Positions 7,604 through 64,000 are shown, counted from the stretch's first letter. The stretch: DNA of 64,000 nt from Cenarchaeum sp. (GCA_963693095.2 OY843768.1:1536001-1600000); one strand, 5' to 3'. The notes: generated from the sequence alone by a model not told the origin. A program made the numbers and translations.

Positions 7604-7657
7604 TGCCAAGCAGGAGGCATGGTACAATATAACGTTATGTGGGGTTTTGCGGCATGG

Positions 7658-46301: not shown

Positions 46302-46398
46302 GGGAGAGTGCGCGCGTCGTGCGTAATTAAAGCGTGCGCACGTGCGCAGCCACCGGGACACTGGTGTGGGCGCTGATCCTTGGCATCAGGCACTAGTC

Positions 46399-47021: not shown

Positions 47022-47182
47022 GCCAGGATCTGGACCTCCTGATGGAACAAGCAGGGCGTAGTCGCCCCCACAGCCTGCACACGCATACCCCGCACCCCAG
47101 TGCACCGAGTATTAATTGGTGCTGCGCGTGAGGGCTCTGTCCACGAATAGGAGGTTTGATATGCCCAATTTGCTACTGCAGC

Positions 47183-47578: not shown

Positions 47579-47909
47579 GGGGCACCACCGGCGAGTCTCA
47601 CTGGTGGGCGCAGTTTCTGATAACCCCTGTCCCCTATATCCGACCCAACAGTCCGCATATTCATACTCGCCCCATAGTGTGCCGTATATTAATTTGTGCC
47701 GTGCAAAACGTGGTTTATGGTCTCGAAGCGACTGTAATGTGCCCATGTCTCAGTTTGTCAACAGTTAGGGGTTGGGAGGGGTCATCAACTTGCGAGGACT
47801 AGGATTGCGCAAGAACGCGCCGCTGAGCTCGTCACGGATGCCTGTGATATGTCAGGGCCTACTGACTGGTGCGTTGTGCAGGCCATGGCCATGACGGCCT
47901 CCACGCGCG

Positions 47910-48503
47910 TCATGCCAGGTCAGTAAAGTGCGCGTGTTTGGCTTCCGGAGACAGGCGTATCACAATATTCCGTAATTCCTTAAAATGACGCAGGAGTAAC
48001 TGTACATCACGCCTAGAGATCTCGCCTGTGGAAAACATGGAAATCGCACGATCAACTGTTGTTAGAGGCGATGTTTTTTTAGAATCTTGCACACGAAGGT
48101 TGATGATCGAGGCTCGTATGCCATGCATATTAGTCACTATGGCACTAGCATTTTGGGGTGTGACGGTACGAGCTCCACTCTCAAACTCTGCAAGTAATAG
48201 TGAGCAATGGTAAGTCGCGAGATCCAGTAGACGAGCCAGTGATCTCATCTCTATGTTCCCATAAATGTCCCTAGCAACAATAGTTTGGACTATGCGAGCT
48301 ACAGCTTTGCCAATCTTGCGGTTCATGTAATAGCCGAGGATTGCAAGTGCGGCACCAAGCGGCCCAATCTGTAAGAAAAGACCCCAGAATGACGTCGCAT
48401 CAGTATAAAGTGAGGCAAGATCGCCAATAAGGGCAACCATAACAATTGCAAAGGCCACTATGCTGCCAAAGATCAGCACGCTGACCGGTATTGTGCTGCT
48501 CAT
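47910..48503 (-). CDS. Hypothetical 2-TM protein with helical soluble domain
   Basis: Lower GC than flanks; ATGA overlap with the upstream gene. Confidence 0.65.
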   Translation of the reverse strand: MSSTIPVSVLIFGSIVAFAIVMVALIGDLASLYTDATSFWGLFLQIGPLGAALAILGYYMNRKIGKAVARIVQTIVARDIYGNIEMRSLARLLDLATYHCSLLLAEFESGARTVTPQNASAIVTNMHGIRASIINLRVQDSKKTSPLTTVDRAISMFSTGEISRRDVQLLLRHFKELRNIVIRLSPEAKHAHFTDLA

Positions 48504-49069
48504 CTGCAGTTACCCCCATGGTATGAGCTTGACGTGGGAAGAAACGTGTCCTTGATCTCATCGTATATGCCGGCGATATAGTCTGGGTCGACTGACAGGT
48601 ATCGAAATTCGGCCATTCGAAGAATCCAGGTGCGCCGATCCCGGCCGCTGGTGGGCTTTGAGTAGCCCTCGATGACTAGGTCGTTGAATCGCGATAGGCT
48701 CGCGGCCATCTCGATCCAGTTCCTGTCATGATTGGCGGCGAACTGGCGAAACTCGTCGATGCGCGGCCAATAGCTGTGATCGGGCGGAGATGCGGCGAGC
48801 GCGTCGTCGATATAGTCAAGATCGCCGAACAGATCCATTGCGCATGGACCCTCCTCAAAGAGTGAATACATGTAATCTAGTCCGGGGTGGCCAAAGTGCC
48901 TCACCGCAAAGTACGCAAGGTGCTGCACCCTTTTGCTTGTCTTGAGGTCCGGCTCTATGAGAGGCCTATTGCCGTCTAGAATGCCCTCATCGCAGAGGAG
49001 CCTGACGAACGGGGCGAGATCCGGACTATAGGCGACCTTTGGTCTCTGCGGCATCATGTCTGCCTCCAT
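48500..49069 (-). CDS. YwgA/Panacea(SocA, DUF4065)-like protein
   Basis: KRVQHLAYFA...LDYMYSLFEEGPCAMDL...WIEMAASL resembles the KLQKLVY...Y.F..Y..GPYS.EL...LELAAT pattern. Confidence 0.6.
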   Translation of the reverse strand: MEADMMPQRPKVAYSPDLAPFVRLLCDEGILDGNRPLIEPDLKTSKRVQHLAYFAVRHFGHPGLDYMYSLFEEGPCAMDLFGDLDYIDDALAASPPDHSYWPRIDEFRQFAANHDRNWIEMAASLSRFNDLVIEGYSKPTSGRDRRTWILRMAEFRYLSVDPDYIAGIYDEIKDTFLPTSSSYHGGNCR

Positions 49070-49196
49070 GGGCGCCGGAAACGCGGTACACTATATTACT
49101 GTTAACTATGGTATGGCCGTAGGCACAGATTTGGCCGACTCACGCCTAGATCGCGCGGCCAGGTTTAAATACCACATACTTAAGAGGGTCGTCATT

Positions 49197-50183
49197 ATGG
49201 TCGCCCAAGGCATACGCGCCAAAGAATCCTGCCCACGTTGCGCAAAGGGCAAGCTCGTCACGGACAACGAGTCTGGCGAGCTCTTTTGCTCAAAGTGCGG
49301 CTATGTGATAACCGAAAAGATCGAAGAGTCCGGTCCGGAGTGGCGCTCGTTCACGCAGGATGACCACGGTGACAGGGCACGCGCCGGCGCGCCGACGTCA
49401 CTCACGATGCACGACATGGGCCTTGCCACGATAATAAATCCCGTCAACAAGGACGCATCAGGCCGTCCGCTTGCCGCATCGATGAAGTCCACGATCGAGC
49501 GACTCCGCACATGGGACAGCCGCAGCCAGGTTCACGAGCCAGTCGACCGCAACTTTAGGCAGGCGTTCTCGGAGCTCAACCGCCTAAAGGACAAGCTCGC
49601 AATATCAGATGCGGTGATCGAAAAGGCAGCATACATTTACAGGAAAGCACTGGAGAAGGGTCTTGTTCGCGGCAGGTCAATATCCGCACTCATGGCATCT
49701 GCGCTGTATGCGGCATGCCGTGACACGGCGACGCCACGAAACCTAAAGGATGTGGAACACGCGGCGAACATAAAGCGAAAGGACATTGCGCGCTGCTACC
49801 GCCTACTCGTAAAGGAGCTCGACCTAAAGATGCCCGTGACTGACTCTGTCCAGTGCGTCTCGCGCATCGCAAGCAAGATCGGCATTGCCGAAAAGACAAA
49901 GCGCCACGCGACTAATGTCCTAAAGCAGGCCAAAAAGAACGAGGTCTCCGCCGGCAAGGATCCTATGGGCCTGGCAGCGGCCGCACTGTACCTTGCGTGC
50001 GTAAAGAACAACGAGGACAAGACGCAGCGCGACATTGCCGAGGCGGCAAACGTGACAGAGGTGACGATACGCAACCGCTACAAGGGCCTAAAGCAGTCGA
50101 TCGACGAGGCCGAGGGCGTCTCTAGTGACACGGCCGCGACGAGCTCTACGCCGGCAAAGCCAAAGAAAGCCGACAGCAAGTGA
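49197..50183 (+). CDS. tfb: Transcription initiation factor IIB
   Basis: Zn ribbon CPRC..CSKCG, GPEWRSF, two cyclin repeats, TEVTIRNRY; TTTAAATA upstream. Confidence 0.96.
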   Translation: MVAQGIRAKESCPRCAKGKLVTDNESGELFCSKCGYVITEKIEESGPEWRSFTQDDHGDRARAGAPTSLTMHDMGLATIINPVNKDASGRPLAASMKSTIERLRTWDSRSQVHEPVDRNFRQAFSELNRLKDKLAISDAVIEKAAYIYRKALEKGLVRGRSISALMASALYAACRDTATPRNLKDVEHAANIKRKDIARCYRLLVKELDLKMPVTDSVQCVSRIASKIGIAEKTKRHATNVLKQAKKNEVSAGKDPMGLAAAALYLACVKNNEDKTQRDIAEAANVTEVTIRNRYKGLKQSIDEAEGVSSDTAATSSTPAKPKKADSK

Positions 50184-50243
50184 GACGCAGCGGCGCACCT
50201 TGCGCGCGCGCATGATTTCTGCAATTCCATATGTCCTGGATAT

Positions 50244-51686
50244 CTAGACTGACTTTTGCGGAAAGCCAGACTCTTCAGTCTCGGGTTCTGGATCCTTTTG
50301 CGGCGCATCAGGCTCTGGCGTCACAAAGCCGCCTTCGTCCGGGTCAGGCGGGGCTATCTTTTTGGCGCCGCCAAGGCCCACAGTCGTGATTATGACCGTC
50401 GATAATATGACAAAGAACGCGACTTGCGGGTACGCCTCGGCGTTTGGCAGGCCGTACGTCAGGGGCAGCGTCGCAAGAACTGCAGCGGCTAGGCCGCGCG
50501 GGATCATGACCGAGGTCACCTTGCGATCAAGCTTTGAAAAGCTGTTCAAGAGTATGACGCGCGCCAGGACTATGCGCGCGATGTATATCGCGACTGCAGC
50601 AGCTATCCCAAAGGCCGTAAGGCGCCAGTCGCCAAAGCTCGCCAAGAGGCCGACGAAGACGAAAAAGAACGCGCGCACGAGAAACGTCAGCTGGTTGTGC
50701 ATCGAGTCATCGCGCTCTATGGATGGCATCTTGAAGCGAAAGAGGCGCGCGATGCGGTCCTTGTTGCCCAAGAGAATGCCAAAGACGAGGGCCGTGAGCG
50801 CGCCAGACTCGCCGAGCGTGTTTGCCAGGAAAAAGAGGAAAAAGAGAACGCCTAGCGTGAGCATGTACCCGTGGCGCGCGTTTGCGAGCTTTGCCGTGAT
50901 GAACAGCCATGGGAGTCCGACGACGAGGCCGAGTGATATTCCGACTGCGAGGTTGTGGCCGACTGACTGGCTCAGGCCCGTTATGGTCAGCGAGTTGGCC
51001 ATTATCGCGCCAAACATGATAAAGGCGATAATAGTCGAGAGTATGTCAGTTATTGCCGATTCGAATGACAGCATGTTCTTTGCGCTCTCTGAAATGCGCA
51101 AGTTGCGCACGAGGCCAAAGACGATGACAGAGCTAGAGCCGCCGACGATGGAGCCCAGGAGAATGCTGCCGTACCAGTCCCAGCCGAGCATAAAGTGCGC
51201 CATTACGGTGACGATGAATACCGAGATGACAAACCCAATGACTGCGAGAAGTATCGCAAAGTGTGCCGTGCGGATCATGTGCTTTAGGTCAAGGTTGAGG
51301 CCGCCATCAAACATGATGATGATCAGCGCAATGGCCGCGAAATATGGCACTATCTGCGTGACGACATCAGGCTGAATTATGCCAAGGAGCGGCCCAAAGA
51401 TGACGCCGAGCATCATCAAAAAGGCGACATCTGGGATTCCCGTCTTTTTGAAAAACGTCTCGCCGATAACGCCAAAGAATATCGTGACTGCCGCCGCAAG
51501 GAGGACGACTGGAGCCGAGGCGATTCCGGCATCGCTTCCGGAAAATGCGGCAAAGGCCTCCTGCAGCCTAGAGACCGCACCGGCGAGCGGCTCGATTCCC
51601 GTCGAGTCGGTCAGCTCACCGGCCATCGAAAAGGCCCTCTCGACGAGGCCGTCCCAGACGGCCAGGACCACAAAGGGCAGATTCAC
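50244..51686 (-). CDS. Cation:proton antiporter (CPA1/NhaP type)
   Basis: About 13 TM helices; FDGGL, ESAITD, PRGLAAAVLA. Start uncertain. Confidence 0.9.
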   Translation of the reverse strand: MNLPFVVLAVWDGLVERAFSMAGELTDSTGIEPLAGAVSRLQEAFAAFSGSDAGIASAPVVLLAAAVTIFFGVIGETFFKKTGIPDVAFLMMLGVIFGPLLGIIQPDVVTQIVPYFAAIALIIIMFDGGLNLDLKHMIRTAHFAILLAVIGFVISVFIVTVMAHFMLGWDWYGSILLGSIVGGSSSVIVFGLVRNLRISESAKNMLSFESAITDILSTIIAFIMFGAIMANSLTITGLSQSVGHNLAVGISLGLVVGLPWLFITAKLANARHGYMLTLGVLFFLFFLANTLGESGALTALVFGILLGNKDRIARLFRFKMPSIERDDSMHNQLTFLVRAFFFVFVGLLASFGDWRLTAFGIAAAVAIYIARIVLARVILLNSFSKLDRKVTSVMIPRGLAAAVLATLPLTYGLPNAEAYPQVAFFVILSTVIITTVGLGGAKKIAPPDPDEGGFVTPEPDAPQKDPEPETEESGFPQKSV

Positions 51687-51783
51687 GCGCCACGCGCGGC
51701 CCGCGTGCGCTTAAAAGGTGTCCGTGTCAAGACTTGGAGCGCGACGGGTTATAACGGAGATAGGGTGCGCGCTGCGCGTGGCA

Positions 51784-52338
51784 ATGGGAGCAACTGACCT
51801 CCTGCGCGAGGACCATCGCCTCGCCTGGCGTCTTGAGGCCGTCATAGTGTCATGCTGCGAGCGCCTCGAGGCGGGCCGCGACGTTCCGCTAGGTGACATT
51901 GAGGCGATCTCGGGTATTATCGAGGGCTTTTTGGACAGCGTGCATCACGCGCGCGAGGAGGGGACGTACTTTGCGTGCGTCGGCGCGTACGGGATGGGTG
52001 CGGACATTCGCAAGTTTCTCATAGAGCACGAGTTTGCGCGTCGCGTCGCCGCAAAGGTCGCCCACCACGTCTCGCGCTGGCGGGCCGGCGAGGATGCGCG
52101 CGAGCCTGTCGCGAGGTTTCTGCGCGCGTATGCGGTATTCCTGCGCGACCACATGACAAAGGAGGAGGCGTTCTTTGAGGAGGCCGAGGCGGCCCTCACT
52201 GCCGAGGAGGAGGCCGAGATGAAAGAGTATCTGGTGTCCGTGGCCTCTGACGCAAGAACGGTCCGGCGCGCCGAGGCCGAGATTGCCGCACTCGAGGTGG
52301 CCGGATGGAACTGCGCTGCGGGTGGCGGGCCGGAATAG
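51784..52338 (+). CDS. Hemerythrin/HHE domain protein
   Basis: EDH, HHAREE, EHE and HMTKEE motifs. Confidence 0.87.
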   Translation: MGATDLLREDHRLAWRLEAVIVSCCERLEAGRDVPLGDIEAISGIIEGFLDSVHHAREEGTYFACVGAYGMGADIRKFLIEHEFARRVAAKVAHHVSRWRAGEDAREPVARFLRAYAVFLRDHMTKEEAFFEEAEAALTAEEEAEMKEYLVSVASDARTVRRAEAEIAALEVAGWNCAAGGGPE

Positions 52339-52353
52339 CGATCTTTTGTGCGG

Positions 52354-52451
52354 TGCGATCTAGGGTTGGTTGCGATCTAGGGTTGGTTGCGATCTAGGGT
52401 TGGTTGCGATCTAGGGTTGGTTGCGATCTAGGGTTGGTTGCGATCTAGGGT
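52354..52451. repeat. Perfect 17-bp tandem repeat (TGCGATCTAGGGTTGGT) x5 plus a partial sixth
   Basis: Units start at 52354, 52371, 52388, 52405, 52422 and 52439; no spacers. Confidence 0.95.
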
Positions 52452-52573
52452 GATCTGGGTATGCCGTATGCGTAATTACGGCCACGCACTCGGCAGGATC
52501 GATCGATCGTCAGCTGATCATGCACTCTCTGCGATCAGAAATGCTTAACTACTAATGGGTAGAAGGGTAACCA

Positions 52574-53071
52574 ATGGGGGAGCAGGGTAGCGCGCCGGAG
52601 CGATCAGATGAGGTTCTAAACGGCGATCAGGATTATGATGAGGAGCGGTGTCGCGTGCTCGATCTTGTGGTTCGCATAATCATGTGCGTAAGCCTCATAG
52701 ACCACTATATTGAGGAGTATCTTGCAGACGCAAATGCAAAGGCCATAAAAGCAGAAAACAAAACTCGTGAACAGTTTATTCAAGACCTACGTAGAAAGAG
52801 CATAGATGATCGCTACGGTATGATTAAGAGTGGTATCCATGACCGACATACCAGCGAAGTTCTAGAGGCAATAAAGCAAGTCAGGGGCATCAGAAATGAT
52901 CTGGCACACTCTACTGTTGAAGTGAATCCCACTGGAACCACAGGAATTACCATGAAGAAAAGTGGGCATAACGTCAGTATTCTAAGAGACGCTTTAAAGA
53001 ACGCCGAGGAGTGCGAAAGGCATCTGAAACAGGTTCTTCAGCTCCCAGAGCGAGAGCAGGGTGGGCGATGA
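52574..53071 (+). CDS. Stand-alone HEPN-like protein
   Basis: All-helical; ...IDHYIEEYL...IRNDLAH (R-x4-H). Confidence 0.7.
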   Translation: MGEQGSAPERSDEVLNGDQDYDEERCRVLDLVVRIIMCVSLIDHYIEEYLADANAKAIKAENKTREQFIQDLRRKSIDDRYGMIKSGIHDRHTSEVLEAIKQVRGIRNDLAHSTVEVNPTGTTGITMKKSGHNVSILRDALKNAEECERHLKQVLQLPEREQGGR

Positions 53072-53168
53072 ATTGACGGCCTCAACACCATTTATGCAAG
53101 ACAAGAAAACCACGCGGCGACGCATCATACAATTTAATAAACACCGCCCAAACACGCCATCAAGCGAA

Positions 53169-55100
53169 ATGGCGATGATCAAGCCCGGCATGAGTGTGGA
53201 TCTCCTAGATGAGTGGAGGGGGGCGTTGGCGAGATGGAAGTTCCAAAAATGGGAGCATTTTAACGGCGCAGAGTGCGATAGGCTTGTACAGAGCATTGTA
53301 GATGACGCTAATGTTCGAGAACGCGAATCAGGCAAGATGATCGACGAGATGGCCACGATTATTGCAGGCACGAGGGGGGAGTTTAGGAGCAAGATTGTGC
53401 ATGGCATGGTATTGAATTGTATGTTGAACAAGGTGTATGTGACAAGAGACCATCGTGGTGGCCTTCATGCATTATTTGACAGTATCAATATCGATGATAA
53501 AACAAGTGATGAAAACGCATATTTTGCACTAGACACGGTTCGCATAGTCTTGCGGCATGTGATTGTGCGTGAGGAAGAACTCTGCGAAGTAAAGCGCGAG
53601 ATTCTTGAATTGTGTTATGATACGATACAGAGGGCAGCCTGGCGTAACGGACTAGTCAGGCTTGCCGAGCTCATGGGCGATAAAAAGGTGCGTGATGAGT
53701 TTTGTGGTGTCAATGCTCAAATTGTCAACATGGCCATGTTGCGCGTTAGTGTGTATGACAAGCGTGACATTCCTCCAGATGACGGGATTCGTGAGATACT
53801 AGCTGAATATCCAGCGCTCAAAAAAATACTGGGCGCAGATGACGTCGTTGGGTCAAAGTCTCATATTACACAACTCATTCACCACATATCGGCAAACTAT
53901 CTAGTAAAGCGCGAGAACTATGAAAAGATCCATGCGGTTGTGTATGAGAGCAACATTCGAATTCGTTACTGGATTAACCAGATTTATGTCCAGCACAACT
54001 CCTCACTTCAACCAATTCGAGACAGTCCGGAGAGGGCCATGCTCCAGCCCTCTCTGAGATTTCTAAACGTGCTGTCCTCGATCAGGTACCTCGTTTTAGA
54101 GATTTGTGAGTTTTTGGAGCTGTGCGAGCGTGATCACCGTGTTGTGGGAAGGGCGGAACTCAAAGATCCCGGAGGCATTTACAGGATTATACAAGAGCAG
54201 GGCAGGGTCAGAGACGACATAAAAAAAATGCGCGATGGGTTTGGCGCCCGTCCAGCCTGGACATTTAAGGAGATTTCTGAGCAGGTCGAGTCAATGGGTC
54301 TGGACACGTTTGTCCTGTACGCGCACCTTGTGCTAATGTTTCAGGATGCGGTATATGGAACCATACCATCAAGATATCACAGGGATGAGAGGCCGGTGAA
54401 GCCATGGCAAGTTCCCGTGTCATGGATGCCGGTAACTGTAGAAGAGGTACGAGAAATAGAAAAGGCGTACGAAGGAATGTCCGTGTCCCCTAAAAAAGAA
54501 CACCAGTGTGAATGTGCCACTATGCACGAGTCACTCTTGTGTCTAATGATGTTGGACATAAATTTCACAAATGTCTCAGAGCACATAGGAGAGGAAACCC
54601 TAGACGCCCACATGAAGTTTAGTAATGAGGTGTATAATCTAAAATATATGATCCTAGAGCTGGCCAACTTTGTTGAGCAGTATGAGAAGCTAGCCCCAGA
54701 AGTAAAGACGCGTACGGGAAAAGAGATTGTGCCTGACTTTCTTGTGCGCAAGGAAAAATATTTCGCTCTTCGTGACCTCTATTCAGCGCATACACAATTT
54801 GATGATAGTCCAGGAATTCAGCAGATCATAACTGAAAACCCCGATCTAGTCTCCAAAATGTTGCGGGATGTGCAGGAAGCGCGGATTATTGTCACAAAAA
54901 TGTCTCCAGAGTTTCAAGAGTACGAGGCGTGTGCCGTTTCGCTCATGACCGACATGGAGATGGATGGTGTAGAGAGAGAGCTTGACTACATACGCGGGGA
55001 ATTCAACGAGTGTAACGGAAACGGATTCGGCGAGATAAGCCGGGATCAGGCACTACAAAAGAAGAGGGAGAGGATGAAAAAGATCCTCGGTGTGGAATAG
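53169..55100 (+). CDS. Large helical protein with two HEPN-like repeats
   Basis: RYLVLEICEF...MRDGFGAR and KYMILELANF...LRDLYSAH. Start is either 53061 (GTG) or 53169 (ATG, ~29 nt after TTTAATAA). Confidence 0.65.
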   Translation: MAMIKPGMSVDLLDEWRGALARWKFQKWEHFNGAECDRLVQSIVDDANVRERESGKMIDEMATIIAGTRGEFRSKIVHGMVLNCMLNKVYVTRDHRGGLHALFDSINIDDKTSDENAYFALDTVRIVLRHVIVREEELCEVKREILELCYDTIQRAAWRNGLVRLAELMGDKKVRDEFCGVNAQIVNMAMLRVSVYDKRDIPPDDGIREILAEYPALKKILGADDVVGSKSHITQLIHHISANYLVKRENYEKIHAVVYESNIRIRYWINQIYVQHNSSLQPIRDSPERAMLQPSLRFLNVLSSIRYLVLEICEFLELCERDHRVVGRAELKDPGGIYRIIQEQGRVRDDIKKMRDGFGARPAWTFKEISEQVESMGLDTFVLYAHLVLMFQDAVYGTIPSRYHRDERPVKPWQVPVSWMPVTVEEVREIEKAYEGMSVSPKKEHQCECATMHESLLCLMMLDINFTNVSEHIGEETLDAHMKFSNEVYNLKYMILELANFVEQYEKLAPEVKTRTGKEIVPDFLVRKEKYFALRDLYSAHTQFDDSPGIQQIITENPDLVSKMLRDVQEARIIVTKMSPEFQEYEACAVSLMTDMEMDGVERELDYIRGEFNECNGNGFGEISRDQALQKKRERMKKILGVE

Positions 55101-55932
55101 CCATGGTTATGAAAGGTCGTGGGCGTGCGCCGTGGTGGCAATTAGTCACGCAGTGCCCACAGGGATATCTAGCCCCCATGGAGCGTGGCATGCGATGAGG
55201 GACGGCTCGGCTGCAATCGGGATACATGCTGACGAGCTCCGGCTAGCCAATGACGTGATTGCCGAGATTGGTGCCGAAGAGTGCGTGCCAGAGTGGGGGG
55301 ACGGGCTGCTCCACGGGAGATTCAAGGAGACTGTCGCAAAGATGCGCGCGTACGCGCAGTTTAGCGCCGCAGCCAGGACTGTCAGGGATCCCATATGCCC
55401 CGGCCAGCGCGAGGAGATTGCGCTGGACTTTAAGGCCGAGATCGATGGTGTTGAGTGCTGGTTTGAGTCAGCCATGCTGGATAATGAGCTGTGGTGGCTG
55501 TCTGACAATGACCGCAGCACAATGTTCCACTCTACTGGAGGCATCGGGATCTCGGCGTGGCGCATACTGGCACGCAACCTAGTCGCGGCCGCATCTAGGC
55601 GAGTCGGCAGGCTAGAGGGGTGGGGAGCCCAGACCGTAATGATTGTCAACGATCCGCTCGGGGAGATCGGCCACTGTGGGGGACTAGACAGGGCGCTAGA
55701 GAAGCTTGGCAGGGCGTGTCCGCAGCTAGGAGCTCTGATCGTCGTAAAGAGGGACAGGTACACGATACACGAGATTGCCGGCTCGGCCAACCCGCTCTCG
55801 GCGGGTGTTCGTGCCGGCATACTGCGCATAAATGAGGAGTATCTTGCCAAAAGGAACGGTGCGGCAGATCGCCGTGTGCCGACTCTTGCAGGATCTGACA
55901 AAGGCAAGACTGCACCGGATCGTGCACGCTAG
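55090..55932 (+). CDS. Hypothetical, possible restriction-endonuclease-like fold
   Basis: LDFKAEIDGVECWFESA resembles a PD...E-x-K-type core but lacks the Lys. Start may be 55195. Confidence 0.5.
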   Translation: MWNSHGYERSWACAVVAISHAVPTGISSPHGAWHAMRDGSAAIGIHADELRLANDVIAEIGAEECVPEWGDGLLHGRFKETVAKMRAYAQFSAAARTVRDPICPGQREEIALDFKAEIDGVECWFESAMLDNELWWLSDNDRSTMFHSTGGIGISAWRILARNLVAAASRRVGRLEGWGAQTVMIVNDPLGEIGHCGGLDRALEKLGRACPQLGALIVVKRDRYTIHEIAGSANPLSAGVRAGILRINEEYLAKRNGAADRRVPTLAGSDKGKTAPDRAR

Positions 55933-55947
55933 TCCCTCGCCGCTTCT

Positions 55948-56145
55948 TTAACTATTCTTATAGTGCGCAAAAATCCGCTCAAGGCCGTCAAGGACGGCGT
56001 AACCACAGTCCGCATCACCGAACGAGCCACATTCGGCCTCCAGGGCAAACAGCGTCATAAAGAGCATCGTCAGGCCGGTGAGCACAATTATCACCGAGCC
56101 GTTCAGCAAGCCTTTCAGCTCGCAAAAGAGCCTATTCCGGTCCAT
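55948..56145 (-). CDS. Small single-TM protein
   Basis: MDRNRLFCELKG then a hydrophobic helix; last gene of a coupled chain. Confidence 0.5.
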   Translation of the reverse strand: MDRNRLFCELKGLLNGSVIIVLTGLTMLFMTLFALEAECGSFGDADCGYAVLDGLERIFAHYKNS

Positions 56146-56314
56146 ATCGCCTGCCGTATCCTGTTTTGGCCGAGCTGCCCATGTCAAGGAACGCCCGAGG
56201 CAGGGAGTGGATTGCGCGCCCCATCCCGTCTGTTCGGACGTGCTGCCACTCCAGACTCTGTGCCGTTATTGCACGTGGGGTGAGGCACATTGCGGATCCT
56301 GGCGCAGGGTTCAT
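56132..56314 (-). CDS. Small hypothetical protein
   Basis: ATGA overlap with the Zn-finger gene; overlaps the start of the next gene. Confidence 0.35.
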   Translation of the reverse strand: MNPAPGSAMCLTPRAITAQSLEWQHVRTDGMGRAIHSLPRAFLDMGSSAKTGYGRRYGPE

Positions 56315-56721
56315 GCCGGTGCCCTGCTAGGGGAATTCCACCCCGACTCTGCGCCGACGGCATCCTTGACCTCCTGGGGAAGCGCCTTGAACTGGATCGC
56401 ACCGAACTTTAGCCCAACTATGATCTCCTTAACTGTCATTGTGCGGTTTTTCATGTTGGGCGCGAACGTGTTCTTGAACGTTCTGACACGCACCGGTCTC
56501 ATCAGCTTGTCGCAATTGTGGCACCTCGTTCCCTCCAGCGCCCCTGTCAGCTCGGCGTTTGTGACCGGCTTGTTGGCCCATACGACAACGCTGTTGCACC
56601 CAGAGCACAGCACTGTCCTCGTCTGCACCAGGGGACGATCCCTGATGCACTGCGACCAGGTCTTGCCGCACTCCCCGCACAGTGCCTCTTTCTTGCTTTT
56701 GCGTGCCAAATGGATCGCCAT
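56311..56721 (-). CDS. Zinc-finger protein (3 x CxxC), virus/plasmid-like
   Basis: CGEC, CSGC, CHNC; TTTATA ~25 nt upstream of the ATG. Confidence 0.7.
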   Translation of the reverse strand: MAIHLARKSKKEALCGECGKTWSQCIRDRPLVQTRTVLCSGCNSVVVWANKPVTNAELTGALEGTRCHNCDKLMRPVRVRTFKNTFAPNMKNRTMTVKEIIVGLKFGAIQFKALPQEVKDAVGAESGWNSPSRAPA

Positions 56722-57089
56722 GGCAGACCCCTACACACATACCCTATAAAACTCCTTCGAACACGCCAGATATGATGTCTCCAGTCCCCATTCGGCGCCT
56801 CACGTCCCCCCAATCGTCTCCTGGACCGCCGTGCGGCTAGTCCACTCGCCGTCCTGCAGGACAAAGCACGTGACTGCCGTGCGCATCGGCTCGGGAACCC
56901 TCTCGCGCAGGCTCACGACGGCGGGGTTGGCAGACCATGTGTCGCAGCCGACAAACCCCATGGCATCCCACTTTGTCATGTTGTATATGACGTGCTCGGG
57001 TTCCTGAAACAGGCCAACAACGTCCCAGAAGCCGCCATGTCCAAGATCCGACGTGAGCCTTATTAGAGAGCGCTTTGGGCGACAGCGTG

Positions 57090-57622
57090 TTGACGATCAA
57101 GCGGATTCGGTCAGATCACATAGACTTGCGACTAATCAAGCGTGGTGAAACGGAGGCAAGGCAGGCCGAGATCAATGTTGGCCTTGATGACTTAACGTCT
57201 AGCATTGTCAGATACGGTCTTTTAAATCCCGTCTTGCTAGTTGAACACGGAAAAGACGGAACTTTTGAGCTAATAGCCGGCCAAAGGAGACTCTTGGCGT
57301 ATCAAAATCTAGCAAAAACGGATCAGAGTTATTCAAAAATTCATGCGGCCATATATGAAAACACCATGGAAGAGTGGGAAAAGAGGGCCATCTCGATCAG
57401 CTCAAACATCACGCAAGAGCCATTGAAGGAGACAGACAGGATAAACGCCATCACGGCAGTTTACAGCCACTTTGACAGAGATATTCCAGAGATGGCCAGA
57501 ACGGCCTAACTGCCTCTGATATGTTGGGGAGGCACGCCAAATGCACAAGGTTGCCGAGGCGAATGGAAGGGTTTGAACGGTTGCTTAAGGTTCGATGTGA
57601 TACTCAACCCCAGGCAATATGA
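57090..57622 (+). pseudogene. parB: ParB/Spo0J-like gene, frameshifted
   Basis: ParBc motifs L..SI...GLLNPV and LIAGQRR, then a stop at 57509 at the start of the expected HTH. Another frame continues GLTASDMLGRHAKCTRLP. Confidence 0.65.
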
Positions 57623-57935
57623 CAAGGTCATCGACGTTTGCGGCCTTGCGATCGGCGAAGAGTTTAGGCGGAGGATTTCATGTTGCACAATTGCGCAGAG
57701 CTACTATGTCATGGGCGTGGTGCTTGCAAGGTCGTGGCGCAAGTCTGAGACACAACACTAGTGTGGTTCTGCCGTTGAGAACAATGGCTCGCAGTCATAC
57801 GAGGCGTTCGTTGAGTATTGGTGATTTCAATGCAATCACAAACATCTCGTGTGCCAGAGGTAAGCGTTATTGTACATAAATTAGTGGTGTGACGACATTA
57901 TCATTCACACATATATTACACTAAGTAGAAAAATT

Positions 57936-58421
57936 TCATGAATCAGGAAGAGTTTCAATCAACTTTTCGATTTCTAGTTCAAACGGACGTTGTTTATCAC
58001 CACCCGTCTGGCGATCCAGAGCAATAAGGCGATAAATGCCGGCATTAGCATATTCTTCGCATATTCGAGCTATTTCTTTTTCTTTTTGATTTTCAAGCGT
58101 ATGTAAATCTGCTTCTTTTGTACTCATTGCAACTGAGATCATTACCCAGACTTCATCTTCAAGAAAAACAGATTTTGGTATTGATATGCTACGTTGTTTT
58201 AACGGTTTACGCTCATCAAGTGTTTTACCGATGGCCATGGCATACAAAAAGATGTCAGAGAGGTGTTTTTCATAAAAAAATGATTCAGAGCGTTTAATAG
58301 CGCCTGATTCAGAATTAAAGTAATCCACAACTTGTTTGTCAGATTTGTCATAGCTGAGATAATCAGGCCAGTCTGCAATAAGACGCCGGGATTTTTGTAT
58401 TGGTGATTTGGCAGAATTCAA
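57936..58421 (-). CDS. pbeD: Dnd-associated protein 4 / PbeD-like
   Basis: DIFLYAMAIG...RKPL...EEYANAGI motif; last gene of the helicase-small-SMC operon. Confidence 0.7.
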   Translation of the reverse strand: MNSAKSPIQKSRRLIADWPDYLSYDKSDKQVVDYFNSESGAIKRSESFFYEKHLSDIFLYAMAIGKTLDERKPLKQRSISIPKSVFLEDEVWVMISVAMSTKEADLHTLENQKEKEIARICEEYANAGIYRLIALDRQTGGDKQRPFELEIEKLIETLPDS

Positions 58422-60520
58422 TTGACACCCTCCAATATTTCTGTATGAGTGTTATTATTTTTGTCTTTTTTGATTGCAAGCTTGTATTCTTTCCACACAG
58501 AATTATTAGCAAAGAGCACATCACGCACAGATCTTGATAATGGGCCAGTAATATCAGAACGCGCGATGCCAGTATATTCCTGATCAGTGACAAGCAAGGT
58601 CAGTTGTGTTTTTTTGAGATAATGGGGAAAACGTTCGGCCAATTCAACTTTGGCTTCTTGCGAGATATTATGCAGAGGAGAATCGATCATAATAAAGTAA
58701 TTGTGTTTAGTAATTTCACGAATAGCAGAAATGTAGGCTAGACCAAGGCAGTGACTCTGTCCCATTGAAAGATTTTTAGAGACGCCATGCTTATCAAGCG
58801 CGCGTAATTGAAATCCAGAAAGAATTTTAACGGCGCTGAAATCTTCTTTGCGAGGCGCAATTTTTAAGAAATATTCTGATGTAATTTCTTCAGTTCTTGT
58901 TTTGAATTCATCTAAAAGAGCGATTCGGATTTGGCGTAGTCGTGACGCAGCGATTTCACAAAGGGCAATTTTTTGGTGTATAGCTTTGTTTTTTCCTTCA
59001 GCAGTTTCAGCATTTTTTATTTTAGTTTGATTAGCATCATGCAGTTTAGCAATTGATTTAATTTCGTTGTTGAGCTCACCAATTTCTATAAATAGACGTG
59101 CTTGTTCATTTTTGTTTTGTTCTTGTTTGGTCAAGACATCACGAGCTTCATCAAACGAATGATCCTGCAGTTCTTTTTTGATAGTTTTACGAGAGGCCGT
59201 AAGTGACATGAGCTTGTTTCTGTTCAAAGCAAGGTCTTTAGAATAACTGTAATATTGTGAACTAATTTTAGATTTTGTCGCATTTTCTAACATTATAGAT
59301 AATCGTGCCCGCCCATGCATAATATCTTGTGTAATTGCAGAATCAACAATTCGATCTTTCATCTTCTGTAATCGGAGAAGTTCATCACTACCCTCTTCAA
59401 GTGAACGACCACAAATACACACAGCAGGTTGAGAGTTAGTCATTTGATCTAGAGCTGATTTGTTGATTGCAGGCGGTATTCGACCATCTTGTTCCCATTG
59501 TCGAAATTTATCTTCGGTAAAAACTATTGTTGGTCGTAAATGTAATTTATAAATATTTTCGCAAAGAAAAGTACGGAAACGTTCGTTAGTCTCGTTAATG
59601 GTTTTAGTGAGAGTTTTTTCTTCTTTTTCTATTTCTTGTAGTCTTTTTGCTTTCTCGTTAATGCTAGCTACAGAATGGTTGATGAGGTAATCCTGGTAAT
59701 TTGCAGCTTCTTTAACAAGTTTTTTAAGAAGTTCGGCTAGCGTAGCGTGCTTTTCTTGGCAATCATTATACCGTTGTTCAAGCTCCTCTGATTGGGAAAT
59801 CAAACCACGATATGGAAGTTGATCTTTTAGCTCCTGGGTAATTTTTCTCTGGGCTTTTTTTAAGTTAGAGACTGTAGTGTCGAGTAAAGGCAAACCAGAG
59901 ATTTCTTCTATGCCATTTTTTACTAGTTCTTCTTCTTTTTGTGTCAAAAAGTGGGATAATAGCTCAGCATCAAATAGGATATACGAGGATAGTGCTTTTG
60001 GAAAAATATTTTCGATCGTTTGTTGTGCATGATCCTGATTGTCCATTTTGATGGGTTGGGGATCAGTCCCTGAACGATAGTGGACTGACAGAATTGGAGG
60101 TTGAAAGTGAATTCCTTCACGTACAAGTGAGCCATTCACGCTGTTAAATCGTTGTTCAAGTAGATCAGTGCTTTTGAATGCTTTGATGCTTCTTTTTATA
60201 CGATATAATAATCCTTCGTCGTCATTAAGCCATAGCTCAACATATGTTTCAATATCATCATTAAGAGGGAGTCGCTCTAATGCATGTTTGTTCATACGTC
60301 CCTCACCTGTATGTTCTGTGTCAAGCTGAACTCGCTCACTACCGTATAACGCCCACATTATTGCATTCAATATGGTGGTTTTACCCAGACCACTTGGGCC
60401 ATGAATAACAGTTATAGGTTTATCAGCATCCTGCGATATGGTTAGCTTATGAGTTCCAAGGTATGTGCGGTAATTATGCAAGATAATTCTATCAATGTTT
60501 AGAGCCGATTTATCAGTCAA
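58418..60520 (-). CDS. pbeC: SMC/Rad50-like ABC ATPase (DndD-like, PbeC)
   Basis: Walker A GPSGLGKTT, coiled coils, CICG hook, LSMGQ signature, IMIDSP Walker B. Confidence 0.78.
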   Translation of the reverse strand: MTDKSALNIDRIILHNYRTYLGTHKLTISQDADKPITVIHGPSGLGKTTILNAIMWALYGSERVQLDTEHTGEGRMNKHALERLPLNDDIETYVELWLNDDEGLLYRIKRSIKAFKSTDLLEQRFNSVNGSLVREGIHFQPPILSVHYRSGTDPQPIKMDNQDHAQQTIENIFPKALSSYILFDAELLSHFLTQKEEELVKNGIEEISGLPLLDTTVSNLKKAQRKITQELKDQLPYRGLISQSEELEQRYNDCQEKHATLAELLKKLVKEAANYQDYLINHSVASINEKAKRLQEIEKEEKTLTKTINETNERFRTFLCENIYKLHLRPTIVFTEDKFRQWEQDGRIPPAINKSALDQMTNSQPAVCICGRSLEEGSDELLRLQKMKDRIVDSAITQDIMHGRARLSIMLENATKSKISSQYYSYSKDLALNRNKLMSLTASRKTIKKELQDHSFDEARDVLTKQEQNKNEQARLFIEIGELNNEIKSIAKLHDANQTKIKNAETAEGKNKAIHQKIALCEIAASRLRQIRIALLDEFKTRTEEITSEYFLKIAPRKEDFSAVKILSGFQLRALDKHGVSKNLSMGQSHCLGLAYISAIREITKHNYFIMIDSPLHNISQEAKVELAERFPHYLKKTQLTLLVTDQEYTGIARSDITGPLSRSVRDVLFANNSVWKEYKLAIKKDKNNNTHTEILEGVN

Positions 60521-60729
60521 TCATCATCAGACTCCTGATTTACCCAATTTAATATTTCTGGATCATCATGGTATCGATTGATAATTTTGTTATACGCTTC
60601 AATTTTATTTCCTTTTTCAACTGTGATAGATTCAGCTTCCAAAATTTCTTTAAAAAAGAGTTGGACTTTGGGGGAGAGATCCTGCATACTATCAATTTTC
60701 TTGAGGATTTCTGGATTTATCTGATCCAC
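60517..60729 (-). CDS. pbeB: Small acidic protein (PbeB-like by position)
   Basis: 70 aa, overlapping the ATPase start; position matches pbeB; TTTTAAA ~25 nt upstream. Confidence 0.55.
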   Translation of the reverse strand: MDQINPEILKKIDSMQDLSPKVQLFFKEILEAESITVEKGNKIEAYNKIINRYHDDPEILNWVNQESDDD

Positions 60730-60896
60730 GCGCCAACGTAAATAAGGTACTTTAAAAGCCTTGACATGAATTTAGCCGCTAGACACACATAATGAGACGG
60801 TCTAGGGTTTGTCCTCACGCCCCATCATCAAAAGCTTCAAGGACTGCGCGGCAGGCGCTAGCCATCGGCCGTAGCACCCGGGGGTCTAATTAACGC

Positions 60897-62984
60897 CTAG
60901 GAAGATGCACCATGAAGTTTACGGCGCTGTTCTTCAACAATAGGCAAGCACTCGTCAGCATTGATAGCCAGCCGAGCCATATCATATTGCCGATCAAACT
61001 GTGAACGAATAATGCTCATTTCAATACTTTTAGTGGCGGGAGTCAAGCGTTCATCTAGGCCAGGAAGAATCAATATGTCGTGAATAGTGGAATGATCTTT
61101 TGAGCTTTTGTCACTATATTTACCAAAAAATTGTCTTAATACACGGCCACGACGCTGAATGAATTGTTTAGGATTTCCGCTGCTGGATAATAAAATGCAG
61201 TGTTTTGCTTCAGGGATATCAACACCTTCATCTAACACCCCAATTGCTACAATTGCGTGATAATCTTCATTTGCAAAATCACGTAGTATTTGCATACGTT
61301 CTATGGGATTTTTTGGGTTATCCGCAGTTATTTTTCTTGAGAGTATAGGCGGAGCTGATTGCATAAGTATAGTTTGAACATCACGCATTTGTTTTTCAGA
61401 ACAGTAAATTAAGGTGTGTTTTAAATCAGGGTGATTTTTGATGATCTCACGAAATTGTGGAATTTTGTTTTCGGCATCACGGATTATCCGAGAACGATAA
61501 ATTAGAGCCATCTCGAGTTCGGCTTCGACATCTTCATCTTTGCGGCGATCCAACAACATGACGATACGATTAGTTGCAGATATGTATTTATCATATTCAT
61601 CAATAGTTAAATCAACATAATATGGATAATAATAATATCCAACTAAAATTTTGGTTTTAATAGCATGTTCAAGATCATATTTGAAAACAGTTTTACCAAA
61701 ATAATCAGACAGCGTTGTAGTGCCAAACTCATCATAATATCGATCAAAGGTTGCAGTGAGTCCAAGACGGTAGGTATAATCTGGCAATAGGCCTCGATGT
61801 CTTTGGGGCGCGCCAGCGTGATGAACTTCATCAGCTAACAACATGATCGGTACCTGGCAAGTTTGGATCAAGTCAATAAAATCTTGAGTTGCATACGTTA
61901 CATAAGAAGTAATTATAGCATTAACGCCAGAGGAAGCTTCTAAATTTAAAAGAGTTATAACGTCACGGACGTTGCGTTTCCAATTAGGGTTGTTCAGAGT
62001 AGAAACATGATCAAATCCTGCAGCCATGAACTGAGATTGCCATTGGTCAGCAATAGTGTTAAAAGGAGAAACAACCACAACAAGAAGACTATCACATTGT
62101 TCAGATATTTTATCGAGTGCATACATGGCAGTTATGGTTTTTCCGGTTCCAGTAGCCATTTCAAAAACACCCGTTCCGTTATTGGCAAGCCAAGATTCAA
62201 CGGCCTGTTTTTGATAAGAGCGTGGCTGGGGTCGATATTTTAAATTCAATAGATCTTTTGATTCAGGCGCTTTGGCGATTAAATTATCTCGAATTGCAGT
62301 AGGCAGATCGATTACGGTTATTATGCGCTTGTTATCATCATCATCACATATTGCATTATTCCAATATTTCAAAAATGTTTCGTAATGTTGGTCGACTCGT
62401 AAACGTTCACTATTATCCCAAGAACGAAAAACATCAAAATTATAGACTTCGCCTATTGTCGGATCGTCAAAGTCTATATTGCCTTTAAATGAGACAAACT
62501 CACTATTGTTTTTCCCATGAAAAACACCAATTTTTGTTTTAAGAGCGCTCACATTAGGGAGATGTTGGGCATCAATTGGGCGTCCAGATTGGTCTTTAAG
62601 TATGGCAACTTTGATTTCAAGGTGTTTATTTTTCAAGAGCCACGCTAAGGCCTTGGTATGATCTTCTTCAAATTTATCTTTAATTTCGTCAATTTGTTTA
62701 ATCCAAGTTTCAGCGATTTTGTCTTCCTGAGTGATGACTTCATTATATATTGCGTCAGCGTCTTCAGGAGAAAATATGGGTGAAAGCACAAGCTCCATCT
62801 TTCCATCATTTTGAATAAAATCTTGCATTCCTGCTGCACACGCTGCAAAATTTTTAGAGGTGAACACGCCGCCAATCCTGTGGCACAAATAAGAGTTTGA
62901 TAAAACCTTGTTAAAAAAATCGTTATAGATATCATCAATGCGTGAATCATACGTATTTTTGAGATTTAGATTATTTAGGCTCAT
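60897..62984 (-). CDS. pbeA: PLD-like domain + SF2 DEAD/H helicase (Dnd-associated, PbeA)
   Basis: N-terminus YDS..DDIYNDFF..VL, MATGTGKT, DEVH, SSSGNPKQFIQRRGRVLR. Confidence 0.8.
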   Translation of the reverse strand: MSLNNLNLKNTYDSRIDDIYNDFFNKVLSNSYLCHRIGGVFTSKNFAACAAGMQDFIQNDGKMELVLSPIFSPEDADAIYNEVITQEDKIAETWIKQIDEIKDKFEEDHTKALAWLLKNKHLEIKVAILKDQSGRPIDAQHLPNVSALKTKIGVFHGKNNSEFVSFKGNIDFDDPTIGEVYNFDVFRSWDNSERLRVDQHYETFLKYWNNAICDDDDNKRIITVIDLPTAIRDNLIAKAPESKDLLNLKYRPQPRSYQKQAVESWLANNGTGVFEMATGTGKTITAMYALDKISEQCDSLLVVVVSPFNTIADQWQSQFMAAGFDHVSTLNNPNWKRNVRDVITLLNLEASSGVNAIITSYVTYATQDFIDLIQTCQVPIMLLADEVHHAGAPQRHRGLLPDYTYRLGLTATFDRYYDEFGTTTLSDYFGKTVFKYDLEHAIKTKILVGYYYYPYYVDLTIDEYDKYISATNRIVMLLDRRKDEDVEAELEMALIYRSRIIRDAENKIPQFREIIKNHPDLKHTLIYCSEKQMRDVQTILMQSAPPILSRKITADNPKNPIERMQILRDFANEDYHAIVAIGVLDEGVDIPEAKHCILLSSSGNPKQFIQRRGRVLRQFFGKYSDKSSKDHSTIHDILILPGLDERLTPATKSIEMSIIRSQFDRQYDMARLAINADECLPIVEEQRRKLHGASS

Positions 62985-63841
62985 GCGGGAGTCAACCGTT
63001 CCAGATTATATTTAATATTTTTGAGAGATATGTGGTGAGGCACCTTTATAGTAAAATTCCCAACTTTGTTAAAGCGTCTGTCAATTATGCCAGTCGCCTG
63101 TTCGTTCACACAAATGATCCCGTAGTCAAATTCAGCGTGGTGTGTTGGACATAATACAATCATATTATCAAAATCGTCGTCACCGCCGTCATGTAAAGGC
63201 CATATATGATGCACTTCAGAGTAATGTGTTTGTGCATCAATTTCTAGACGATATTCGCAAATTTGGCATTTATTGTCGTATAACGTTTTTAATTCACGGG
63301 ATTTTTTAGTGTCACGAATAAACCGGACTGTGTCATGCTTAATTTGGTCAGGGGGGCCGTTTAGATCAATAGGTAAAACAGTGAAACCAGATGTCGTAGG
63401 GCTGACTGGAACCTGCCTATTCATAATATTATCAATTTTATGTTCTTGTATTTTGTGCAATCCTGGAGCGTGTTTGGTGTGAGGATCATCGGCATGGTCA
63501 AGCAGCTCATGGCGCGGTATTTGAACAGTCCGAGTGGCATTAAAATAAACAATGTGAACCATCATTCTTGTTCTAAAGCTACTGCCCCACTGCTTTGGGA
63601 GATCAGGGTTAATTTCTGTTTGAGATACCGAACCCTGGATTGAAAATCGGTGATCACCTTCAAGCATCATGTAGATAACATCACCACGGCGAAGTTGTTC
63701 CCAAAGGGTTTTGTCATGCTGGCGAAGTCCCCATTTGGGTGTATCGTCTGTAGAAAGCATGAGTGACTGAAAGAGGGAAGCATCTCTCCGGTCAACAATG
63801 ACGAAATAGAGTTTTGCTTGCAGATCAGCGGATAACGTCAT
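62981..63841 (-). CDS. PUA/EVE-like domain + HNH endonuclease
   Basis: WG......W..L.RGD.I aromatic N-domain; CQIC...EVHHIWPL..GG.D..DNMIVLCPTHH HNH motif. Confidence 0.82.
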   Translation of the reverse strand: MTLSADLQAKLYFVIVDRRDASLFQSLMLSTDDTPKWGLRQHDKTLWEQLRRGDVIYMMLEGDHRFSIQGSVSQTEINPDLPKQWGSSFRTRMMVHIVYFNATRTVQIPRHELLDHADDPHTKHAPGLHKIQEHKIDNIMNRQVPVSPTTSGFTVLPIDLNGPPDQIKHDTVRFIRDTKKSRELKTLYDNKCQICEYRLEIDAQTHYSEVHHIWPLHDGGDDDFDNMIVLCPTHHAEFDYGIICVNEQATGIIDRRFNKVGNFTIKVPHHISLKNIKYNLERLTPA

Positions 63842-64000
63842 GCTCGGATCTTCTCCAACATTGTGATCGTTGAGCTGATTTTGTCAATTGCAAAGTCAAT
63901 TTCATCACTGGTGTTAAATCTGCCAAATCCCAGGCGAATCGACGTGTGAGCCTGCTCCTCGCTCAGTCCAATGGATAGCAGCACGTGTGACGGTTCAGTC
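63838..64000 (-). CDS. dndA: Cysteine desulfurase C-terminus (DndA/IscS; partial)
   Basis: Hand-translated TEPSHVLLSIGLSEEQAHTSIRLGFGRFNTSDEIDFAIDKISSTITMLEKIRA*; ATGA overlap with the HNH gene. Confidence 0.82.
   Translation of the reverse strand, partial: TEPSHVLLSIGLSEEQAHTSIRLGFGRFNTSDEIDFAIDKISSTITMLEKIRA

Follow-up and report, generated by a model that had tools for sequence, protein, structure and literature searches.

A candidate five-gene Pbe subtype in ammonia-oxidising archaea, in which a PUA-HNH protein may stand in for the lost nuclease site of PbeA

Introduction

Why does a gene for an HNH nuclease lie between the modification genes and the defence genes of a DNA phosphorothioate (PT) island, and to which of the two does it belong? 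The question is raised by an archaeal genome of 2.0 Mb in 2 contigs (Cenarchaeum sp., GCA_963693095.2, here G000), in a 64,000-nucleotide stretch of which (G000:C1:1536001-1600000, hereafter the window) positions 57936-64000 hold six co-directional minus-strand open reading frames (ORFs). An earlier note, made from the sequence of the window alone, had described these as an AT-rich run of desulfurase, HNH protein, helicase, 70-aa protein, ATPase and Dnd-associated protein in an ammonia-oxidising archaeon, and had placed dndCDE just past base 64000. All six ORFs lie where that note put them, at 33-42% guanine plus cytosine (GC); dndE, dndD and dndC, plus dndB, follow within 7 kb beyond base 64000; and an archaeal amoA gene (389 bits) and an archaeal 16S gene agree with the host it named.

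Positions 57936-64000 are the downstream half of a defence island of about 14 kb (window-equivalent ~57,900-72,000), which continues in locus L002, the next 16 kb (window position = L002 position + 63000). Its order is dndI-like (divergent) / dndB-dndC-dndD-dndE-dndA-[PUA-HNH]-pbeA-pbeB-pbeC-pbeD. The haloarchaeal DndCDEA-PbeABCD system, as presented in excerpts of PMC6459918, likewise has dnd beside pbeA and pbeC, with the small genes pbeB and pbeD at the places of the pbeB-like and pbeD-like ORFs, in the same order and direction, and PbeA and PbeC of the island match the Pbe hidden Markov models (HMMs) of PADLOC strongly. The assignment to the dndCDEA-pbeABCD type can thus be kept, although dndB is additionally present here, a PUA-HNH gene stands between dndA and pbeA, and the host is a Nitrosopumilaceae-type ammonia oxidiser.

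Results

The pbeA gene (60897..62984, minus strand) encodes 695 aa that match the PADLOC PbeA profile over positions 1-667 of 672 (E 2.9e-178) and TIGR04095 with E 1e-115, at 387 bits against a cut-off of 600. Residues 1-250, modelled with AlphaFold2 (AF2) at a predicted local distance difference test score (pLDDT) of 91.2, adopt a phospholipase D (PLD)-superfamily fold. Its structural matches include Streptomyces PLD, SauUSI, NucT, NgoAVII and BfiI, and two pseudo-PLDs, FAM83 and TrmBL2, are among them as well. The active-site HKD motif is degenerate, reading K149-T-K151...G168-N-I-D171 where PbeA proteins without a linked HNH gene read H-x-K...G-S-x-N. The label "PLD-SF2 helicase" given to this protein earlier was right about the fold and the superfamily 2 (SF2) helicase; the HKD catalytic motif has been lost.

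This loss is shared by PbeA proteins encoded next to an HNH gene. In an alignment of 61 proteins, comprising 53 HNH-linked (49 distinct) and 8 unlinked ammonia-oxidiser sequences and leaving out L033 (match too short) and L028 (gene split), none of the 53 has His at column 149 (the residues there include K in 19, Q in 11, R in 10 and D in 6), and Lys151 and Asn171 are retained in 18 and 5 of them, respectively. The unlinked ammonia-oxidiser proteins keep the His in 7/8 and the Lys and Asn in 8/8 of the H-x-K...G-S-x-N-E motif. The H, K and N of the motif are also kept in all 20 full-length haloarchaeal homologues examined (taken from 40 of 301 genomes with a match), and the HNH gene is found in 0/20 of their 14-kb loci; overall, 27 of 28 unlinked archaeal PbeA proteins have the catalytic His. 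The helicase part, by comparison, shows no variation in its motifs across 40 HNH-linked PbeA proteins, all of which read GTGKT (Walker A), DEVHH and QRRGR.

A profile of the PbeA N-domain matched 1,601 representative clusters at E <= 1e-30, and the best 150 of these were scored: 137 read H-K-G-S-N and 13 are without the His. All 13 His-less representatives have an HNH-linked PbeA as nearest neighbour, and all 137 intact ones an unlinked PbeA. One representative of 985 aa, P0191, was considered as an HNH-PbeA fusion and set aside, its N-terminal 263 residues not matching the HNH protein and its HKD motif being intact.

In a full-length FastTree phylogeny, a single branch separates the HNH-linked PbeA proteins from all others (support 100), and the same split appears when only helicase columns are used and the PLD region is excluded (IQ-TREE SH-aLRT 97). 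Within this clade the HKD-dead state is kept down to 33% identity in full-length ORFs, which argues for purifying selection and not decay. As far as these sequences go, the HNH gene marks one clade of PbeA that is without the PLD catalytic His, Lys and Asn and has kept its helicase motifs.

The HNH gene (62981..63841, minus strand; 286 aa) joins both of its neighbours, dndA and pbeA, by ATGA start/stop overlaps. In a sample of 400 other Nitrososphaeria genomes, 23 contain PbeA-type matches (E <= 1e-60), and neither same-genus genome is among the 23; G364, G282, G326, G132 and G231 enter only the 400-genome denominator. We compared 20 loci from 19 genomes, omitting G175, G079, G072 and G204 (short contigs) and the second loci of G291 and G349. 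The HNH gene is directly upstream of pbeA in 10 of these, gives an HNH-only match in an eleventh (L032) and is absent from the other 9, those whose PbeA is no more than 37% identical to that of the window. It stays beside pbeA where dnd lies 2-3.5 kb off (L016, L018, L021, L022 and L028) and where dnd is missing from the 20-kb locus (L020 and L023).

A scan with the family alignment gave the same picture on a larger set, counting as informative those loci in which the N-domain is included in the match and the sequence continues for at least 150 nt beyond it. The next gene after the HNH gene is pbeA in 67 of 70 informative loci (13/14 genome and 54/56 metagenome, sets that may overlap in origin, so that the locus counts are not independent), with a median spacing of 8 nt between the tblastn matches. 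The exceptions are a genome locus of 25% identity (L091) and two metagenome loci with less than 180 nt downstream (L157 and L165). Where a genome locus is matched in its HNH domain only, neither PbeA nor Dnd is found in the neighbourhood (0 of 66 such loci).

Divergence follows the same lines. Across 41 distinct loci, identity to the window proteins gave Spearman coefficients, descriptive since the loci are related, of 0.79 for HNH with PbeA (n=41) and 0.79 for HNH with PbeC (n=31), beside 0.86 for PbeC with PbeA (n=31) and 0.83 for PbeD with PbeA (n=21); the values for HNH with DndA and DndC are 0.22 (n=16) and 0.16 (n=13). By these genomic associations the HNH gene belongs to the Pbe module and not to dnd. 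The earlier note had spoken of a Dnd-Pbe system with an extra component; the extra component is there, as part of the Pbe module.

Within the collections searched, the five-gene Pbe subtype is nearly confined to Nitrosopumilaceae. Of the 13 genome loci in which pbeA comes next, 12 carry the label Nitrosopumilus, Nitrosopumilaceae or Nitrososphaerota, and the thirteenth, L035, Deltaproteobacteria. L035, an 18.9-kb contig of a metagenome-assembled genome, is the closest syntenic copy of the island (DndB 83%, DndC 77%, HNH 47% and PbeA 55% identical). Its flank has 59% GC and carries two HNH-domain ORFs and a TPR gene, tblastx segments of which are 57-65% identical to the TPR gene beside the present island. 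Given this flank GC and TPR similarity, the bacterial label may reflect binning, mis-binning being as likely as transfer, and we do not read L035 as pointing to a donor from another domain of life; its source may be a relative of this archaeon with high GC and not a bacterium.

What kind of protein does the HNH gene encode? It matches Pfam HNH (E 1e-7) and belongs to a family of ~285-aa members, for which 90 homologues were found. An AF2 model based on an alignment of 52 (pLDDT 89.3) has two domains and a disordered linker. Residues 175-286 superpose on TagI with Z 17.5 and a root-mean-square deviation of 2.0 over 110 aa at 28% identity; phmmer relates the protein to TagI over residues 148-283 (E 1.2e-11), and a Foldseek search with the whole model returns TagI first (4e-8) and then VcaM4I (1.4e-6). 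Residues 5-147 give Z scores of 10.7-11.3 to YTH domains, the Thermococcus gammatolerans McrB N-domain with m5C DNA, PH1033 and MJECL36; these PUA-superfamily scores are tied and do not separate EVE from YTH. W37 and, in the beta-beta-alpha-metal HNH core, C192, C195, H211, H212, N226, C231 and H235 are unchanged throughout the 52 homologues. Pfam HNH matches 52 of 52 family members and the Pfam EVE, YTH and PUA models match none of them, so the assignment of a PUA-type reader comes from the predicted fold. As modelled, the protein is a PUA-superfamily (EVE/YTH-like) reader joined to a TagI-like HNH nuclease domain, an architecture of modification-dependent enzymes.

The best NCBIfam match, NF045808 ("phosphorothioated DNA-binding restriction endonuclease"), has E 5e-13 but only 48.8 bits against a cut-off of 180, and it covers profile positions 157-245 of 284, the HNH part only. 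With no winged helix in the model either, we rejected a sulfur-binding-domain enzyme of the ScoMcrA/SprMcrA-like type as a description of this protein.

The remaining Pbe genes differ in how well families describe them. The pbeC gene (58418..60520, minus strand; 700 aa) covers the whole PADLOC PbeC profile (1-618 of 618; E 1e-74) and matches Pfam AAA_23 (E 2e-15); with the Walker A GPSGLGKT, the CxC motif VCICG, the signature LSMGQ and IMIDSPL in its translation, the predicted product is a CxC-type ATP-binding cassette (ABC) ATPase, sister of DndD. The pbeB-like ORF (60517..60729, minus strand; 70 aa with an acidic C-terminus), named for its position, has no family match among Pfam, PADLOC or NCBIfam profiles, and tblastn finds counterparts, 31-37% identical and in the same position, in only 4 loci (L017, L115, L116 and L117). 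Such scarce and diverged counterparts fit the "rapidly evolving small protein" that PMC10853773 describes for the PbeB type. The pbeD-like gene (57936..58421, minus strand; 161 aa) has no PADLOC match and no BLASTP similarity to the DndE of this island; a homologue of 28-50% identity occupies the same place after pbeC in most related loci. The protein had earlier been labelled Dnd-associated-4-like, and a match of that kind is there (TIGR04062 dnd_assoc_4, E 9.8e-10), at a score of 38.8 bits that falls under the cut-off of 74.25.

Upstream of the HNH gene, the predicted modification gene set DndABCDE is complete in one cluster. Profiles of NCBIfam and PADLOC place dndE, dndD, dndC and dndB at L002 1986-6942 (minus strand), with dndD, for an ABC ATPase, at 2350-4290 (minus strand; TIGR03185, 431.1 bits against a cut-off of 245.85) and dndC, for a PAPS-reductase-like sulfurtransferase, at 4347-5957 (minus strand; TIGR03183, 503.4 against 290.4). 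DndB, a DGQHR-domain regulator, scores 438 bits with TIGR03233 (cut-off 328). DndE is found by PADLOC (E 8.6e-44), scores 70.6 bits with TIGR03184, just below the cut-off of 71.85, and is 49-72% identical to DndE of other islands. All ten island genes are intact ORFs coupled by translational-type overlaps, which measure 4 nt between dndA and dndE, dndA and the HNH gene, the pbeB-like ORF and the start of pbeC, and the pbeD-like gene and pbeC.

The dndA gene has its 3' end in the window (63838..64000, minus strand), a part that on its own matches PADLOC DndA (3.1e-12) and SspA (1.3e-12). The whole gene, L002 838-1989 (minus strand, to window-equivalent 64989), encodes 383 aa and matches PADLOC DndA with E 2.7e-152. 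The NCBIfam models IscS (467 bits) and DndA (TIGR03235, 390 bits) both stay below their own cut-offs, so the desulfurase subfamily is called from context. The genome encodes two further IscS-like proteins outside the island, and with these the island DndA shares only 43-44% identity, against 56-68% with DndA proteins of other dnd islands. These identities, with the operon position, rule out a housekeeping IscS; where the earlier note had allowed for a grouping with housekeeping IscS/SufS, the desulfurase proves to be an extra copy within the operon, nearer to DndA of other islands.

Divergent from dndB lies a dndI-like gene (L002 7229-8986 = window-equivalent 70229-71986, plus strand; 585 aa, 35% GC) with DUF262 and DUF1524 domains (PF03235, E 7e-27; PF07510, E 3.5e-25). 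Its best match among solved structures is DndI (9jfl, E 6.3e-30), with the DGQQR motif aligned and kept, and the gene probably encodes a second PT-dependent effector of the island. In the parts of PMC11662687 that concern it, DndI is the PT-sensing NTPase/nickase of IscS-DndBCDE-DndI. The present island resembles that system in having a DUF262 plus DUF1524 gene beside dndB and differs from it in that Pbe is also present, which gives two candidate PT-dependent effectors. In the same-genus genome G020, too, such a gene accompanies dndBCDEA. The DndI-like proteins of G000 and G020 are only ~25% identical. In five related loci (L125, L141, L163, L166 and L183), dndI-like genes lie between dndA and the HNH gene.

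Base composition sets the island apart and divides it internally. GC is 51-56% in dndBCDEA, 42% in the HNH gene, 33-38% in pbeABCD and 35% in the dndI-like gene, against 62.8% over window positions 1-52000; it steps from ~60% to 38% at pbeD, near window 57,800, and returns above 60% at window-equivalent 72,000. Among 988 2-kb windows of the chromosome, only 29 have less than 45% GC, 4 of which belong to the island. For the haloarchaeal system, the excerpts of PMC6459918 infer separate acquisition of dnd and pbe (rho 0.107); here the two lie ~15 GC points apart, a mosaic that fits such separate transfer.

The chromosomal site is variable as well. It is flanked by a hemerythrin gene and an inositol-monophosphatase gene, which 26.4 kb separate here; the distance is 16.3 kb in G020 (94-96% amino-acid identity) and ~0.55 kb in G319 (60-65% identity). 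Between these genes G020 carries dndBCDEA in the opposite orientation, 50-62% identical (L216 = G020:C1:1306001-1325500, 2400-14400), together with a 358-aa ORF and a convergent DUF262/DUF1524 gene; HNH and Pbe genes are missing there. By this differing content the site is a hot spot with changing PT-based cargo, which, with the foreign composition, upholds the horizontal acquisition proposed earlier. No tRNA genes were found at window 45000-64000 or in L002, and no direct repeats of at least 13 nt flank the island.

Several features of the surroundings may be recorded here. A ParB_N ORF (window 57075-57509, plus strand; Pfam E 2.3e-7) directly borders the island and recurs, with 93% nucleotide identity, next to the unlike island that G020 carries. 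Window 52384-57043 (4.66 kb) is absent from G020, where its flanks are 92-93% identical, and may be another variable or defence cassette: it includes a 165-aa ORF (52574-53071) with weak PADLOC CARF/HEPN matches (E 1.6e-4), a 679-aa ORF of 47% GC (53061-55100) with no Pfam or PADLOC match, and ORFs at 55090-55932 and 56078-56749 with no matches. In sequencing run X1, a 14,700-nt contig is identical over window-equivalent 57450-72149, the whole island, and contigs break at both borders; L215 denotes window-equivalent 55001-75000, and X1 may be the source sample and thus not independent support. About 2 kb before the island (L215 95-418), the left flank matches both an identical X1 contig and a second that differs at 32 of 324 nt, which hints weakly at co-occurring strains with different sequences at the island site.

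Elsewhere in the genome, homologues of 8 C5-cytosine methyltransferases (intact) and 5 N6/N4 methyltransferases score above cut-off, the former at G000 C1 positions 34068, 388698, 699428, 813663, 816141, 1416073, 1468492 and 1746338. Several methyltransferase homologues lie in the rare low-GC 2-kb windows, and the genome is unusually rich in restriction-modification cargo.

Discussion

Our data suggest, with a probability of roughly 0.7, that this is an acquired Dnd-Pbe island in which the HNH protein replaces the lost PLD nuclease within a five-gene Pbe subtype. From what is known of these families, DndACDE would put PT marks on host DNA, with DndB as regulator, and the Pbe module, consisting of the putative SF2 translocase PbeA, PbeB, the ABC ATPase PbeC and the DndE-like PbeD, would spare marked DNA and block viruses. 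The PUA-HNH protein could supply in trans the nuclease that PbeA lost and add a reading head for flipped, modified bases. Together, the HNH protein and PbeA would form a split, ATP-dependent, modification-reading restriction enzyme, presumably analogous to SauUSI or McrBC, and PT status might gate this enzyme through PbeC and PbeD.

A bolder form of this reading is that the PUA-HNH protein, HKD-dead PbeA, PbeB, PbeC and PbeD are one five-protein DNA-cleaving machine with a trans-acting reader-nuclease in place of the PLD, in which PbeA translocation and PT sensing by PbeC and PbeD license cleavage of DNA that lacks PT or bears a foreign modification. We put this forward tentatively, at somewhat worse than even odds.

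Two kinds of known enzyme help to place the HNH-PbeA pair. The type IV modification-dependent enzymes TagI (SRA-HNH) and VcaM4I (EVE-HNH) share with the present family a reader of the PUA/SRA kind, a linker and an HNH domain with a C-terminal extension; they are stand-alone genes, whereas this family occurs essentially only before pbeA. SauUSI (PDB 7clg), an ATP-dependent type IV restriction enzyme with the domain order PLD-helicase-reader, likewise unites a PLD fold with an SF2 motor and a domain that reads modified bases, and its PLD domain is matched by the PbeA N-domain (Foldseek E 8.5e-5). SauUSI is, however, one polypeptide with an active PLD, while here a second protein carries the reader and the HNH domain, the PLD has degenerated, and genes for an ABC ATPase, a DndE-like protein and a PT writer are attached.

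Several considerations weigh against the replacement reading. The loss of HKD and the gain of the HNH gene fall on one branch of the tree and so represent one evolutionary event, not independent replicates. The unlinked proteins with genomic context are archaeal only, 28 in number, and the 150 representatives came without context, their linkage being assigned by nearest neighbour. PbeD and PbeB were called from position and one sub-threshold HMM match, and PT marks, expression, nuclease activity and contact between the HNH protein and PbeA are all predictions. Since TagI and VcaM4I, of the same architecture, act alone, the HNH protein could do so too. In haloarchaea, the only hosts from which the phenotype is known, Pbe blocks virus replication in a PT-dependent way and does not degrade viral DNA according to the excerpts of PMC6459918, and Pbe function may therefore not centre on a nuclease. 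Finally, with 8 C5 and 5 N6/N4 methyltransferase homologues in the host, a simple nuclease triggered by 5-methylcytosine (5mC) risks cutting its own genome; as ungated cutting at 5mC would destroy the host, either the reader recognises something else or the Pbe complex gates it.

Alternatively, the PUA-HNH protein may be an autonomous type IV restriction enzyme that merely shares the island and covers viruses with modified bases, the HKD loss of PbeA being unrelated. We regard this as unlikely, if still the most serious competitor. Its two-domain architecture and best structural matches are those of the stand-alone TagI and VcaM4I, defence genes commonly cluster, and the island holds another nuclease of stand-alone type in the dndI-like gene. 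An autonomous enzyme would nevertheless not be expected to lie directly before pbeA in 67 of 70 informative loci with overlapping or nearly overlapping codons, to have its complete N-domain away from pbeA only in L091 (25% identity), to diverge in step with PbeA and PbeC and not with Dnd, or to associate exclusively with the HKD-dead PbeA clade. The 8 host C5-methyltransferase homologues also sit badly with an ungated 5mC-dependent nuclease.

It is a good deal less probable that the island is silent or decaying, or that its PT marks serve epigenetic or redox functions outside defence with Pbe and HNH as non-functional passengers. The degenerate PLD site of PbeA would agree with decay, the expression and PT marks of the island are predicted, and many dnd clusters come without a restriction partner in the excerpts of PMC10853773. 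Passengers would hardly have left ten intact ORFs with translational-coupling overlaps, conserved catalytic motifs in helicase, ABC ATPase and HNH domain, and an HKD-dead clade diverged to 33% identity with full-length ORFs. Least probable is a PT-dependent endonuclease of the ScoMcrA/SprMcrA kind that cuts PT-modified DNA, as the NF045808 match and the wHTH(SBD)+SAD+HNH (winged helix-turn-helix, sulfur-binding domain) genes common just downstream of dnd (PMC10853773, in part) might suggest, for that match is confined to the HNH part, residues 5-147 form a PUA-type barrel, and a PT-cutting enzyme coupled to dndA would attack its own host.

The replacement reading extends what has been described. 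With the CxC ABC ATPase-DndE systems of PMC10853773, as its excerpts present them, the island shares a PbeC of the CxC ATPase type, a putative PbeD of the DndE-cognate kind, a small putative PbeB of the fast-evolving kind and a PbeA with PLD and SF2 parts. The same source reports nucleases, including HNH, immediately downstream of dnd genes; the HNH proteins in those excerpts are three-domain wHTH(SBD)+SAD(SRA)+HNH enzymes, unlike the PUA(EVE/YTH-like)+HNH protein tied to pbeA here. The terms EVE, PUA and YTH do not occur in the main text of PMC10853773, nor "HNH" in that of PMC6459918, and no inactive HKD in PbeA is mentioned in the 12 passages covered of the 18 in PMC10853773 on HKD and inactivity. 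In the phosphorothioation and Pbe literature, as far as its excerpts go, we found no description of a PUA/EVE-HNH protein tied to pbeA or of an HKD-dead PbeA, and the supplementary neighbourhood tables of PMC10853773 might hold such loci. By contrast, dnd genes have been reported in ammonia-oxidising archaea, especially sponge symbionts (PMC6790972 and PMC7848895, in part), and the excerpts of PMC6459918 list 6 Thaumarchaeota with DndCD. What is new here is thus the apparently nuclease-swapped Pbe subtype; the Dnd-Pbe system and the presence of dnd in this lineage were already known.

Conclusions

Few marine microbes are as abundant as the Nitrosopumilaceae ammonia oxidisers, whose resistance to viruses is poorly understood. 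In this genus, different species carry different PT-based islands at one chromosomal site. The subtype found at this site would be a case from nature in which one nuclease of a defence complex has given way to a non-orthologous one and, if the five-protein reading is true, one belonging essentially to marine and sponge-associated Nitrosopumilaceae. Keeping a nuclease through such a swap would point to nuclease action as essential and conserved in Pbe defence, which bears on the disagreement between the absence of DNA degradation in PMC6459918 and the HKD cleavage predicted in PMC10853773, as each appears in the excerpts. The subtype thereby offers a testable handle on whether Pbe must cut DNA.

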